IMG/VR virus record: IMGVR_UViG_2534681834_000006 | Length of the DNA stretch: 64,000 bases | From: a virus | Lineage: Duplodnaviria; Heunggongvirae; Uroviricota; Caudoviricetes | Direction: 5' to 3' (one strand) | Shown here: piece by piece, positions 50,778 through 58,217 of the stretch | Layout: each line of letters opens with the position of its first letter | Numbering within the stretch: position 1 is the first letter of the stretch | The notes under the pieces: model-generated | The model's input: only the letters and a program-made list of their open reading frames with translations | Told to the model about the DNA's origin: nothing | Database searches by the model: none | Translations under genes and position numbers: made by a program

Positions 50778-50859
50778 TGATTTTTAAAACAGAGAAAGTG
50801 AAAATAAAAACATGCCGCAAGGCGCGGCATGTATCCAATCAATCACAGGAGCTGAAAAT

Positions 50860-50946
50860 ATGAACACGGCATTCAAAATCATTATGGCCGCGATCTATTT
50901 CTGGCTGTTCTCTATCATTTTTGGCGGCATCGTTGCGCATGGGTAA
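50860..50946 (+). CDS. 28-aa hydrophobic peptide (candidate small membrane protein or type I toxin-like)
   Basis: aggag RBS 8 nt upstream; MNTAFKIIMAAIYFWLFSIIFGGIVAHG; below the ORF-track cut-off. Confidence 0.35.
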   Translation: MNTAFKIIMAAIYFWLFSIIFGGIVAHG

Positions 50947-51025
50947 GGGGAGTATATTAGCCATTTGGAACCCCACGGTCTCTTGCGGGTTTAATTAAGA
51001 ACCCGCAAGAAAAACACGAATTGGG

Positions 51026-54000
51026 CTATATTTTTCCGCCTACGCCTTTAAACTTCTCAATAAACGAGACGATTTTCTGGAAAACTGCCTGTTTTTTCGT
51101 TTTATATTGCGGATTCAACGGACTAAGTTTTGGTAATGTTTCGTTTAATTCTGTGCCATTTTCGGTGGCGTATTCGCGTTTTAAAGACGTGCGAATATAG
51201 CGTTTTGCTGCTTCTTCATTGAGGTTTTCTTCTTTTATCAATGCTTCTGCTTCACGTTGCTGTTCGCGTTGAGCAAACGTAAAGAATGCCTCAATGATAC
51301 TGGCTTTGTCTGGTAAATCATCCAGGTTCGTTTGCTGAATAAAATCGACCACCAGGCCCTCTTTCGCCCGGTTTCCCAGGCTTGAACGAATTAAGCGTTT
51401 GACCTCTTCGATCATTTCGCCCTTGCCTTTATTTTGTCTGTTGTGTTCGAAAATCAGTCCAAGGATATAATCCAGGTTTATTTCCTGAGACTTCAGCAAA
51501 TCGACCTCAAAAACTACATCATCCCAGTCAGTGGTTGATTTCTCTTTTTTCTCAGCTTCTTTCTCACGGCGCTGCCAGTCGCGAATATCGTTATAGGCAG
51601 AACGATAATCCTGAATCTTGCGATCAGCAGGGAGACGAATTGTTTGCAATTCAGCGAACTTTTCATCATCCACATAATGTTCTGCTTTGAATTTTTCTAC
51701 CGCAACAGGATCGCTAAGATCGATTTGTTGCAGGGCTTTTAGCGTGGCAAATTCATCATAGTTTTGCAGGATGTTCTCGGCACGCAGGTATTCGCCAAAC
51801 AGTTTAACGAAGTCTTTCTTCTCTTTTTCACTTTCAATACTGGTAGGGTCAGGGAACCGTTGTTCCAGTTCTGAAACTACTGTCATGAAGCCGCGTTTAG
51901 CTTCACCAGTGGCAGCATCAGTAAAGCCTTCCATATACTCTGCATAACTCTTTTCTAAAACCACATTTTTGGTATTTTTGTCACCAAACAGCGTTATGGC
52001 ATCAATGGTTGAGCGTTCCAGATCCCGGAACGTGACGATATTACCGAAGGTTTTAGTCGCGTCATAAATGCGGTTGGTGCGGGAGAATGCCTGCATCAGG
52101 CCGTGAAAACGCAAGTTTTTATCGACGAATAGCGTGTTCAATGTTGGAGCGTCGAAGCCGGTTAAAAACATCCCAACGACAATTAACAGATCGATATCCT
52201 GATTTTTAACCCGTTGGGCTAAATCACGATAGTAGTTCTGAAAACCGTTACTGTCGGTACTGAAGTTAGTTTTAAAATAGCTGTTATATTCACGAATTGC
52301 AGCGTCGAGAAACTCTTTAGCACTGCTGTCCATTGCGCTGGTATCAAAAGTTTCATCGGAAATTTCACCAATGGCATTTTGTTCTTCATTAGCGGCAAAG
52401 GAGAAGATTGTCGCAACACGTAGTGGTTTATAGGTAGCAGATTTATAAGCGGCTTCCTCTTGTAACCGTTTAAACGTCGCGTAATAGGCTTTCGCGGCAT
52501 CCACGCTGCTCACTGCCAGCATGGCATTAAAACCTTTGGAGCCAGGGAAAGTACGGTGGGTTTTCTGGCGGAAGTTATTCAGGATATATTGCGTAATTTC
52601 CTGAATACGCATGGGATGAAGGAACGCCTGCTGATTTTCAGCCGCACTCAGTTTTTTCTCGTCAGTTTCTGTCTCTAAAGACTTAAACTGTGGCCGCACA
52701 TCGTTGTAGTCCACCTTGAATTTAAGCACTTTTTCATCACGAATCGCATCGGTAATAACATATGAATGCAATTCACGGCCAAATACGCTGGCGGTCGTTT
52801 CTGAGCCTAAGGCGTTTTCCGGGAAAATAGGTGTGCCGGTAAAACCAAACTGATAATAGCGTTTGAATTTCTTCTTCAGGTTTTTCTGTGCTTCTCCAAA
52901 CTGGCTGCGGTGACATTCATCAAATATAAACACCACTTGCTGATTGTATACAGGCAGGTCGCTTTCTGCTTTCATCAGGTTATTAAGTTTCTGAATAGTG
53001 GTGACGATAATTTTGTTATCGTCCTTATCCAGATTTCGTTTAAGACCTGCGGTATTTTCCGAGCCGTTGACGCTGTCTGGCGAAAAACGCTGATATTCCT
53101 TCATGGTCTGGTAATCGAGGTCTTTCCTGTCGACCACAAAGAAAACTTTATCAATAAAGTCCAGTTCTGTTGCCAGACGCGCGGCTTTAAAGCTGGTCAG
53201 GGTTTTACCGGAACCCGTGGTGTGCCAGATATACCCACCGCTTTCCGGTTTTGACCAGTTCTTCGCTGTAAAGGAGCTCTTAATTTTCCACAGAATGCGC
53301 TCGGTGGCGGCAATCTGGTACGGTCGCATCACCAGTAGCGTCTGACTACTGTCAAAAACGCTGTAGTTCACCAGAACATTCAGCAGAGTATGTTTCTGGA
53401 AAAAGGTAGCGGTAAAATCTTTGAGGTCTTTAATCAGCGTGTTGTCTGATTTCGCCCAGTTCATGGTGAAGTCAAAACTATTTTTATCGCGCTTTGTGGT
53501 GTTGGCAAAGTAACGGGTATCGGTGCCGTTAGAAATGACAAACAGTTGCAGATACTTAAACAGGGAATTTTCGCTGTTAAAACTCTCTTTACTGTAACGA
53601 TGTATCTGGTTGAAAGCCTCACGAATCGCCACGCCGCGCTTTTTCAGTTCGATTTGCACCAGAGGCAAGCCATTAACCAGGATAGTTACGTCATAACGGT
53701 TAGCGTGAGAACCTGCCTGTTCAAACTGCTGGATAATCTGCACTTTGTTGCGCATGAGATTCTTTTTATCTATCAGATAGATGTTCTCAAGACGCCCGTC
53801 GTCAAAAATAAAGTCGCAAATATAGTCGATATGGATTTTACGGGTCTTATCCAGAATGCCATCGCTCGGGTTGTCCAGATACTGCTCCGTGAAACGCCGC
53901 CACTCGCTGTCATTAAACACCACACCATTGAGGCTCTGAAGCTGTTCCCGAACATTGGACAGCATAGCCGACTGAGATTTTACGGATATAAATTCATAGC

Positions 54001-57073: not shown

Positions 57074-57611
57074 TTTCTTCCACTTATTTCAGGCTTAAGT
57101 AATTGGCGGTGATTCTACAGCAACTTTGATGCTTTAGCAGTTCGGACATTAGGCAACGAATGACCTAATTAGAGCTTTTTGGAAAAGCGGTATTGTCGGT
57201 GCGATGATAGCTATGTTTGGGTTCGCGATGGTGCAATACAATGACGGTGAAAAGGTAAGCATCCAGTCTGATGGCTGGTATGGGCTGGATAGCCTGCAAA
57301 AAACCGCAGATAAAGCCTGTCAGCAATATGGAAAGTCTAAAGCCGTATATCAGCATAGCGCGAACGCTAATCCACATCTCGCGCCCGGCACGGGCGTTCA
57401 GAACACTATTTGGAAATGCGAACCATAACGCAGGTTGGCTTTTTACATCTTGGGCCGAATACTGATTCCGCGCTAAGTTGTTTGTGCGGAAGTGACACTG
57501 TGGAGCTTAGAAATAGTAAATACTGGTGGGCAACAAATTGAGCCTTCACACGCTCACCAGCACACACAAAAAATGGTTAAACAGCAAGGGAATTAATATC
57601 TCAGCGCGACA

Positions 57612-57749
57612 TTAAATAAGCCAGCGCACGCCTCTGTTTATCACTGACTTGAAAAACCATATCAGAACCACGATGAAGACAATCGCCAGCACTTGGCTAA
57701 GAACAGGCGCATTTAAAAATGCACTTAGAAACTGAAAAAATACAATCAT
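57612..57749 (-). CDS. 45-aa hydrophobic peptide (candidate small membrane protein)
   Basis: GAGG RBS 9 nt upstream; MIVFFQFLSAFLNAPVLSQVLAIVFIVVLIWFFKSVINRGVRWLI; not in the ORF track. Confidence 0.35.
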   Translation of the reverse strand: MIVFFQFLSAFLNAPVLSQVLAIVFIVVLIWFFKSVINRGVRWLI

Positions 57750-58217
57750 CAGGGTAATCCTCGTCAAATGTAAAGCTGTGTGCTCTCACGTTGACGTAGA
57801 AACCCAACCTCTATATAGTTGGATTCGGTGAAAGAAAGTCGTTAACGTGAACTTACGGCACATGTTTTCGGTATAAAAATCAGGGAACTGTGAATTCCTT
57901 GATGTAGTTGGGGCCTGTAATGCAGGCCCTATCTATTAATGTCATGATTACATCTCAAATTTTCTCCTTATCATTATTATTTAATAAAATTCAATTAATA
58001 AAATATCCATTTCCTGTGTGTGCAAACACAGTATGAGGAAAATGGCCTCGTTGCAAGTGCATAACTTTGTGGATAACTCTGAAGGCGAATTTACATTTCG
58101 GCGCACCGCAAGCCAGATAAGCTGTGCGCAAAAAGCAATGGGGTGAGAAAAAAACTTTGAAGATATTGCGGCGACTAAATAATAGCCGTTATTCAATTAT
58201 TCTGGATGGGATTTAAT

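Follow-up and report, generated by a model that had tools for sequence, protein, structure and literature searches.

Two short hydrophobic reading frames beside the hsd cassette of a P1-like phage-plasmid: probable membrane protein genes at the edges of a cargo-exchange region

When short hydrophobic reading frames are found on both sides of a restriction cassette in a phage genome, do they belong to the defence cargo or to the phage that carries it? The question is raised by a 64,000-nucleotide (nt) stretch of DNA from a virus of the Caudoviricetes (IMG/VR record IMGVR_UViG_2534681834_000006), called here the window, in which two such open reading frames (ORFs) flank an hsd operon. The original prediction, made from the letters alone, described a frame of 28 amino acids (aa) at 50860-50946 on the plus strand with an AGGAG ribosome binding site (ORF1), and a 45-aa frame at 57612-57749 on the minus strand with a GAGG site (ORF2); both descriptions were found to be accurate. 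It further suggested that these were unannotated genes of membrane-like peptides, of no nameable family, which beside defence cargo could be type I toxins, addiction modules or regulators. Based on the comparison with related elements we consider it probable that both ORFs are genuine small inner-membrane protein genes of the P1 backbone, standing at the edges of a cargo-exchange hotspot (pmgT to humD), and that the adjacency of hsd is incidental, a by-product of recombination junctions falling at these places.

Backbone genes or companions of the restriction system

Positions 50200-58500 of the window find matches at 100% identity in E. coli plasmids whose size is about 100 kb (the identical RefSeq plasmid is NZ_CP122822), and since the matched plasmids encode pap, hot, humD, phd/doc, lpa and terminase genes, the window was recognized as a P1-like phage-plasmid. 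The size of the two frames alone means nothing, because 202 ORFs of at least 25 aa overlap the region 46000-62000; only conservation sets ORF1 and ORF2 apart from the others. Plasmids contain roughly 870 copies of ORF1 and roughly 230 of the ORF2 region, and the sample compared here comprised about 80 contigs. Conservation of the frames in related elements, which had been proposed as a check, was found for both of them, and it extends to the start codon, the Shine-Dalgarno sequence and the hydrophobicity in divergent relatives, in agreement with the idea of membrane-peptide-like genes.

The suggested tie to the defence cargo was not supported by the same comparison. Both ORFs are located in the P1 backbone, and they also accompany cargo other than hsd: in P1 this is pmgTUV, in P7 it is the hea operon, and a further contig (L036) and elements of the type of Cronobacter phage JK004 have unrelated genes there. 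If the peptides acted together with the hsd system, as regulators of restriction, restriction alleviation or establishment, the point in favour would be physical adjacency, and the 26-aa T4 peptide Stp, which affects the type IC enzyme EcoprrI (PMC12707154), could serve as a loose precedent. However, both frames are intact in P1, P7 and other elements that have no hsd, hsd occurs without ORF2 in some P1-like plasmids (L002) and with a truncated ORF1 in IncF plasmids, and neither peptide shows similarity to any restriction-related family. In the IncF hsd plasmids IS1 cuts ORF1 at codon 2-3 and the start, the Shine-Dalgarno sequence, the hairpin and the promoter are lost; since these plasmids hold a truncated stump, the hsd system does not need ORF1. 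Judged by this distribution the partnership with hsd is close to refuted, and we regard it as highly improbable.

The leader cistron behind pap

ORF1 (MNTAFKIIMAAIYFWLFSIIFGGIVAHG) is a conserved first cistron predicted to encode a single-helix membrane peptide, and its mean Kyte-Doolittle hydropathy of 1.99 over residues 5-24 places it among the small hydrophobic peptides. The alignments demonstrated that its place is that of the predicted first cistron of a C1-repressed operon (Op88/OpmgT), which continues with pmgT in P1, where the shared homology ends 4-6 nt after the ORF1 stop and the pmgT start codon comes 8 nt later. The operator of the C1 repressor, ATTGCTCTAATAAGTCT (50761-50777, plus strand), is a 17-base-pair (bp), asymmetric site overlapping the promoter; it agrees in 16 of 17 positions with 84293-84309 of the P1 record AF234172, and the same operator is annotated in P1 as Op88/OpmgT and in P7 as 'Op(hea)'. 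The predicted sigma-70 promoter P1pmgT was mapped from the P1 record by alignment to 50777-50805 on the plus strand, with the -35 hexamer TTGATT at 50777-50782, which is kept in divergent relatives, and the -10 hexamer GAAAAT at 50800-50805. The palindrome that the original prediction had placed at 50811-50831 is real and slightly longer: the hairpin ACATGCCGC-AAG-GCGCGGCATGT occupies 50810-50832 with a 10-bp stem and a 3-nt loop, and it falls where the ORF1 transcript is predicted to start. It is followed by the Shine-Dalgarno sequence AGGAG (50847-50851, plus strand), 8 nt before the ATG. ORF1 is intact in about 80 of 83 P1-like contigs of IMG/VR, and at least four kinds of sequence stand downstream of it in the 83 contigs (pmgT, the hsd type and two others).

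The strongest argument for a gene comes from distant relatives, JK004 itself and two metagenomic P1-like contigs (L179 and L180), where the same features follow pap in the same order: operator, -35 TTGATT, hairpin, Shine-Dalgarno block and ORF. The C1 operator is retained in the JK004-type relatives as ATTG(C/T)TCTAATAA, and the block CAATCACNGGAGC...AATATG (also CAATCACCGGAGC..AATATG) is kept in all three. Although the nucleotide identity between ORF1 and the JK004-type ORFs is only 50-55%, their first 24 codons align without a gap (e.g. MQVLIKLAVTAFFVWLFSV vs MNTAFKIIMAAIYFWLFSI) and share the motif K..A(I/F)(Y/F).W(L/M)(F/L)(S/T); the differences between ORF1 and the relatives amount to 16-17 at first, 5-6 at second and 11-14 at third codon positions, and the mean hydropathy is 1.6-2.0 in all four. 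The JK004-type homologues reach 53 aa and end in a hydrophilic tail, and the ORF of JK004 overlaps the start of the next gene; within this 53-aa group the ratio of non-synonymous to synonymous substitution rates (dN/dS) is 0.2-0.4. Because the distant relatives have preserved the operator, the Shine-Dalgarno sequence, the ATG, the frame and the hydropathy, ORF1 appears to be a real conserved gene of a small membrane protein.

The frame was said to be unannotated, which holds for the P1 and P7 records and for NZ_CP122822. A 44-aa form of ORF1, starting at an ATG inside the hairpin (50812), is annotated in pSvP1_F (WP_001313486.1) and, as 'membrane protein', in phage SJ46; the corresponding hairpin of JK004 has no ATG.

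On the minus strand the palindrome looks like the hairpin of an intrinsic terminator followed by TTTTATTTTC, and it scores as a terminator. In this plasmid the convergent hsdR replaces the rest of the ORF1 operon, and in hsd plasmids the palindrome probably ends the hsdR transcripts, which would have a 3' untranslated region (UTR) of about 200 nt antisense to ORF1. Its conserved role seems to be a different one. The relatives have a hairpin of unrelated sequence at the same position, with compensatory changes between L179 and L180, but the equivalent hairpin of these two contigs lacks a T-run on either strand, and the T-run of the P1 hairpin coincides with the AT-rich -10 region; the conserved function is therefore more likely that of a 5' stem-loop of the operon mRNA.

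The terminator-like minus strand brings up the idea that ORF1 is a type I toxin, whose antitoxin would be the hsdR 3' UTR or a small RNA ending at the terminator in 50810-50832. The 3' UTR of hsd plasmids would be fully complementary to ORF1, and the known toxins TisB and ShoB are similar in size to the 28-aa peptide. On the other hand, no convincing antisense promoter was found inside or just after ORF1, the frame is a repressor-controlled first cistron in P1, P7 and distant relatives that do not have hsd, the lack of a T-run in L179 and L180 indicates that the terminator role is not the conserved one, and the IncF plasmids keep hsd with an ORF1 decapitated by IS1. A type I toxin role of ORF1 is thus unlikely, since the repressor-controlled promoter, the operon position and the missing antisense promoter fit such a system poorly; as for the complete scheme with an antitoxin from the hsdR side, we give it very little credence.

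Under the preferred reading of ORF1 as the leading gene of a C1-controlled operon, it would be silent in the lysogen and transcribed from PpmgT after inactivation of C1 or on infection. The mRNA would begin with the conserved 5' stem-loop and would be translated from the conserved Shine-Dalgarno sequence and ATG into a single-pass membrane peptide, and transcription reading through from hsdR would probably stop at the ORF1 hairpin acting as minus-strand terminator. A literature search for a transcriptome or ribosome-profiling paper on P1 found none.

The peptide, the structured block and hot

ORF2 (MIVFFQFLSAFLNAPVLSQVLAIVFIVVLIWFFKSVINRGVRWLI) was described as lying upstream of hsdM, which is true in a loose sense: it ends 538 bp from hsdM, and a 74-aa ORF (57204-57428) stands between the two. 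Its Shine-Dalgarno sequence GAGG is at 57759-57762, 9 nt before the ATG. The predicted membrane peptide has a basic tail and two hydrophobic segments, between which stands N/D-A-P, and with a mean Kyte-Doolittle hydropathy of 2.56 over residues 14-33 it also belongs to the small hydrophobic peptides. The frame is intact in all 84 loci (29 haplotypes), one of which has a tail altered by IS1. Three alleles, 75-85% identical in nucleotides, have the same start, the same stop and the same length of 45 codons; compared with the type of the window, the P1/P7 type is identical in 60% of the amino acids and a third type, found with unrelated cargo, in 78%. The flanking non-coding DNA contains insertions and deletions, and the AGG-type Shine-Dalgarno sequence is preserved. 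dN/dS was 0.29-0.45, and when the observed substitutions were placed at random, the ORF was kept with no more than the observed number of amino acid changes in 4.8%, 1.9% and 0.8% of the trials for the three pairs. These comparisons demonstrated that ORF2 has the attributes of a separate gene, with a 45-aa membrane peptide as its predicted product. The claim that it was unannotated is correct for the same records as in the case of ORF1; in P7-type plasmids it has been annotated by PGAP (WP_000123562.1, WP_170988307.1). 'Upf91.3' of P7 was considered as a name for ORF2 and rejected, as it designates the plus-strand analogue of upfM.

ORF2 is always divergent from hot (58206-58457, plus strand), a homologue of the theta subunit of DNA polymerase III and its constant neighbour. 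On the distal side four neighbours were found: the hsd-associated DNA beside hsdM, pmgV, unrelated genes and an H-NS gene. The last of these belongs to a fourth, non-P1 allele of 42 aa with a different tail, altered by a 19-nt deletion. This module of hot, conserved block and ORF2 outside P1 was observed at 3503-5231 of contig L174 (Logan SRR16987663; also GCA_012294745.1 AASDKW010000013.1), between a Vgr-DUF2345-TsiV cluster of type VI secretion and an H-NS family gene. A protein word-index search and full HMMER searches with ORF2 returned only P1-type alleles, variants hit by IS1 or frameshifted, and this one non-P1 locus.

Several observations weigh against the view that the two frames are genuine backbone genes. 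The ORF1 copies of the P1 group are too alike (about 97%) for a strong coding test: about 10 non-synonymous and 7-8 synonymous events were counted, and the polymorphism gives an omega of about 0.4-0.5 (p about 0.055), weakly below neutral; an automated count, inflated by one recombinant allele, gave about 0.54 (p = 0.055). Natural alleles of ORF1 carry G22D, G23D and L16Q inside the helix. Both families are limited to P1-like elements plus one other locus, each amounting to 4-5 protein clusters among billions of proteins. In one class of hsd-carrying plasmids (L002) the 74-aa ORF is joined straight to hot, and ORF2 and the conserved block are absent; this class, together with the plasmids in which the tail of ORF2 was replaced by IS1, means that ORF2 is dispensable. 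Lytic growth does not require the genes from pmgT to upfO (PMC10695390). Furthermore, a sigma-70 promoter for ORF2 was sought within 300 nt and none convincing was found.

One could also suppose that one or both ORFs are untranslated and that nucleotide-level elements are what has been preserved, a leader or attenuator of the pmgT operon in the case of ORF1 and promoter, RNA or recombination signals in the case of ORF2. The first 19 codons of the P1-type ORF1 contain few changes, only one of them synonymous, in contrast to the free variation of the last 9; both ORFs border on recombination junctions, T-rich DNA easily yields hydrophobic ORFs, and frames of this size are abundant by chance. Yet at its low identity to the JK004-type frames ORF1 retains the ATG, the Shine-Dalgarno sequence, the gap-free frame, the sparing of second positions and the hydrophobicity, and ORF2 has exactly the same length in three alleles in spite of the flanking insertions and deletions and passes the substitution-placement test. 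We consider the untranslated alternative improbable.

The DNA between ORF2 and hot is even more conserved than the ORF itself. Among the 29 haplotypes the diversity is lowest at 57781-57870 (0.02-0.07), compared with 0.08-0.19 inside ORF2 and more than 0.2 in the flanks; DnaA boxes lie in a second conserved island. The block contains a strong sigma-70-like promoter on the plus strand, TTGACG-17-TATAGT (57791-57819; 10 of 12 positions match), which is the 'PupfN' of the P1 record and has invariant hexamers among the alleles examined. Around it lies an inverted repeat (57785-57851) formed by CTCACGTTGACG (57785-57796) and CGTTAACGTGAA (57840-57851), with the inner stem CCAAC/GTTGG, in which L174 shows a compensatory change of A:T to T:A. 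Fold and conservation make 57826-57940 (plus strand) a candidate for a non-coding RNA, about 115 nt in length and folded into three hairpins, the last of which, GGGGCCTGTAATGCAGGCCC (57910-57929), is followed by TATCTATTAAT and is terminator-like. The fold has a z-score of -3.35. In the consensus structure of seven distinct sequences 95.5% of the cells are paired and four pairs are changed on both sides, which 1 of 500 shuffles reached; the sample is small, and the structure was built on these very sequences. A large share of the pairs are G-U pairs specific to the plus strand, as their complements could not pair. We propose this segment as a candidate small RNA or structured leader of hot rather than a protein gene; the expression of ORF2 would probably be linked to the adjacent promoter and this RNA.

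The same DNA, the 5' end of ORF2 and the block, is occupied in the P1 annotation by the hypothetical plus-strand genes upfM and upfN (upf91.3 and upf91.4 in P7). In the window both frames are interrupted: upfM, which overlaps the start of ORF2, has a stop after 12 codons and an insertion or deletion, and upfN has a stop at codon 10, whereas the minus-strand frame of ORF2 is kept in every allele. When antisense promoters were sought inside or after ORF2, the -10 sequence (CATAAT) of P1upfM in the P1 record proved not to be preserved in the window. This suggests that the P1 reference annotation upstream of hot is wrong and that the true features would be a minus-strand gene of a 45-aa peptide and a structured plus-strand RNA.

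On the minus strand of the block (57880-57953) we noticed a strong Shine-Dalgarno sequence AAGGAG (57964-57969); behind it come a start-stop element that is conserved (ATG TAA) and a frame of 21 codons, which lies antisense to the hairpin of the terminator. This leader frame (57880-57945), kept in P1 and L174, was rejected as a gene: it probably is not one, because it has no start codon in L036 and its amino acid changes track the compensatory changes of the hairpin.

Upstream of hot two DnaA boxes, TTATGCACT and TTATCCACA, lie on the minus strand at 58056-58076; they are kept in all alleles, and the P1 record notes the same. They are part of a 47-bp segment which is 91-95% identical to the ypaB/nrdA promoter region of E. 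coli and finds this match in 5425 of 5426 E. coli genomes, which suggests a regulation of hot by DnaA similar to that of nrdAB. The near-universal match of the L174 query to the E. coli chromosome is due to this segment only and is irrelevant to ORF2. Beyond hot, a perfect core of a LexA box, CTGTATAAATGAACAG (59554-59569), lies between an lxr-like gene (58832-59416, minus strand) and humD (59591-59980, plus strand). Transcripts running on the minus strand from the lxr side could extend as far as ORF2, since a scan found no terminator in between, but this is speculation.

The arrangement of ORF2 invites a further explanation: ORF2 and the divergent plus-strand RNA could be a type I toxin-antitoxin pair serving addiction or abortive infection, with translation of the toxin blocked through a 5' overlap with a long leader or through the leader frame. 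The peptide is small and hydrophobic and has a basic tail, and the non-coding block is more conserved than the peptide, with its invariant strong promoter, three hairpins, terminator-like end, compensatory changes and strand-specific G-U pairs. The neighbourhood is one of plasmid maintenance (phd/doc, humD, hot), and the minus-strand gene pair with the perfect LexA box reads towards ORF2, which is reminiscent of SOS-induced toxins. Against this stand the base-pairing tests: the duplex of the candidate RNA with the ORF2 initiation region had an energy of -57.6, shuffled sequences giving -56.9 on average, and no exact complement was longer than 11 nt, which is the chance level. Overlap in cis hinges on the 5' end of the ORF2 mRNA, the plus-strand transcript could be a plain leader of hot, and the module is absent or hit by IS1 in some plasmids. 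When targets of the candidate RNA were sought across the window with RNA-RNA duplexes and k-mers, the results likewise stayed at chance level, an exact-motif scan for the conserved core in one genome per species found nothing, and a gapped palindrome scan of viral contigs gave P1-type copies and chance matches only.

The family searches also speak against the toxin idea. Rfam had nothing relevant at the gathering threshold in the whole window or at E up to 10 in the regions of the two ORFs, and Pfam, NCBIfam, PHROGs and PADLOC gave nothing significant with either peptide (no defence-system protein model of PADLOC matched), which bears out the statement that neither belongs to a nameable family. 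No model of the known type I families (Hok/Sok, Ldr/Rdl, TisB/IstR, Ibs/Sib, ShoB/OhsC, Zor/Orz, DinQ/AgrB, SymE/SymR) matched them. The same Rfam scan found a bona fide hok/sok locus elsewhere in the window (16848-17172, plus strand), with sok at 16848-17022 (114.9 bits) and a Hok-like 51-aa ORF MKQHKAILIALIVICLTVIVTALVTRKDLCEVRIRTGQTEVTVFTAYESER at 17017-17172, a 426-aa transposase-like ORF beginning at 17244; therefore the tools detect a classical type I module when it is present. From its features ORF2 could be a type I toxin, and we judge the toxin-antitoxin scheme as a whole unlikely. Still more doubtful is the extended form in which ORF2 and the RNA would be an unrecognised type I-like module of P1-type phage-plasmids, the second one for addiction or stress, at a distance of about 1.6 kb from phd/doc, possibly fed by SOS-dependent read-through from the LexA-controlled lxr side. 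It would travel with hot as a mobile unit, given its occurrence outside P1 beside the H-NS gene and the Vgr/TsiV cluster.

Taken together, we prefer to see ORF2, like ORF1, as a small membrane protein gene of the backbone. P1 is a reference phage and a cloning tool, and P1-like phage-plasmids often carry resistance or defence genes. What looked like small peptides beside defence cargo is better described as backbone genes bordering a cargo hotspot than as restriction accessories. The most interesting residue is the module of ORF2, RNA and hot, along with upfM and upfN, which are likely to be misannotated in the reference genome. For experiments on small proteins and small RNAs there are now two concrete and inexpensive targets, in a system with well-developed genetics; biologically the stakes are modest, except in the event that ORF2 and the RNA prove to be a maintenance or stress module.

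The hsd cassette and comparison with known systems

The cargo itself is a type IC (EcoR124-family) hsdM-hsdS-hsdR cassette at 51026-57073 on the minus strand, identified by annotation and PADLOC (REase_I 1618 bits, MTase_I 395 bits), with hsdR at 51026-54202, hsdS at 54264-55520 and hsdM at 55517-57073; PGAP names the first 'type I restriction endonuclease subunit R, EcoR124 family'. It stands in for pmgT-pmgV of P1, between pap and hot. The left flank is 97% identical to the pap/Op88/pmgT leader region of P1 up to 4-6 nt beyond the stop of ORF1, so that the left junction lies at 50947-50952, and this breakpoint recurs with several different right-hand neighbours. On the right, homology to the upfM-hot region of P1 (about 78% identity) restarts at 57553-57560 and extends from about 57553 through hot. 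Two features appear to belong to the inserted DNA. A 12-bp hairpin directly after the hsdR stop (50981-51010) is hsd-associated and kept in IncF and IncY hsd plasmids, and the 74-aa ORF mentioned above, on the plus strand and divergent from hsdM, seems to travel with the cassette: in L002 it is kept to its stop with mostly third-position differences. No family match was found for it in the searches, PADLOC among them.

In other plasmids IS1 was observed at both small ORFs, at 4253-5081 of L040 (IncF, NZ_CP115331.1) and at 785-1613 of L035; the sites are codon 2-3 of ORF1 in the IncF hsd plasmids and the 3' end of ORF2 in an IncY plasmid, which suggests that the hsd cassette was moved by IS1 with a stump of P1 DNA. 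Elsewhere in the window Rfam identified expected P1 features, the C4 antisense RNA of P1 immunity with its a1/b1 targets (13187-13392, plus strand) and three tRNA genes (35043-35193 and 37402-37474, plus strand).

Compared with the enterobacterial type I systems (hok/sok, ldr/rdl, tisB/istR-1, shoB/ohsC, zorO/orzO, dinQ/agrB), ORF1 and ORF2 are likewise small and hydrophobic, and ORF2 is also similar in its layout, with an adjacent, conserved and divergent element resembling a small RNA. Unlike these systems, they have no sequence or covariance-model match and no demonstrable base-pairing, and ORF1 is controlled by an operator and comes first in an operon.

The closer parallel is the exchange of cargo in P1 relatives. 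A 1997 paper by Tyndall, Lehnherr, Sandmeier, Kulik and Bickle (Mol Microbiol 23:729), known to us by its title as reference 364 of PMC12707154, reportedly deals with P1 homology flanking type IC hsd loci, and the window shows the same arrangement. The GenBank record of P1 (AF234172) notes that its positions 84263-84482 are 96% identical to the DNA downstream of the EcoDXXI hsd genes and that 84399-84482, corresponding approximately to ORF1 from codon 2 to a few bases beyond the stop, are 98% identical to the DNA downstream of hsdR in R124/3; these notes speak of DNA homology, and as far as we checked the two small frames are not called genes there. The region from pmgT to humD has been described as one of eight variable regions in P1-like phage-plasmids (PMC9603915), on the basis of the P1 gene list, which lacks ORF1 and ORF2 and includes upfM and upfN, the two frames broken in the window. 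The hsd cassette sits inside this P1 hotspot, and ORF1 and ORF2 mark both of its conserved edges.

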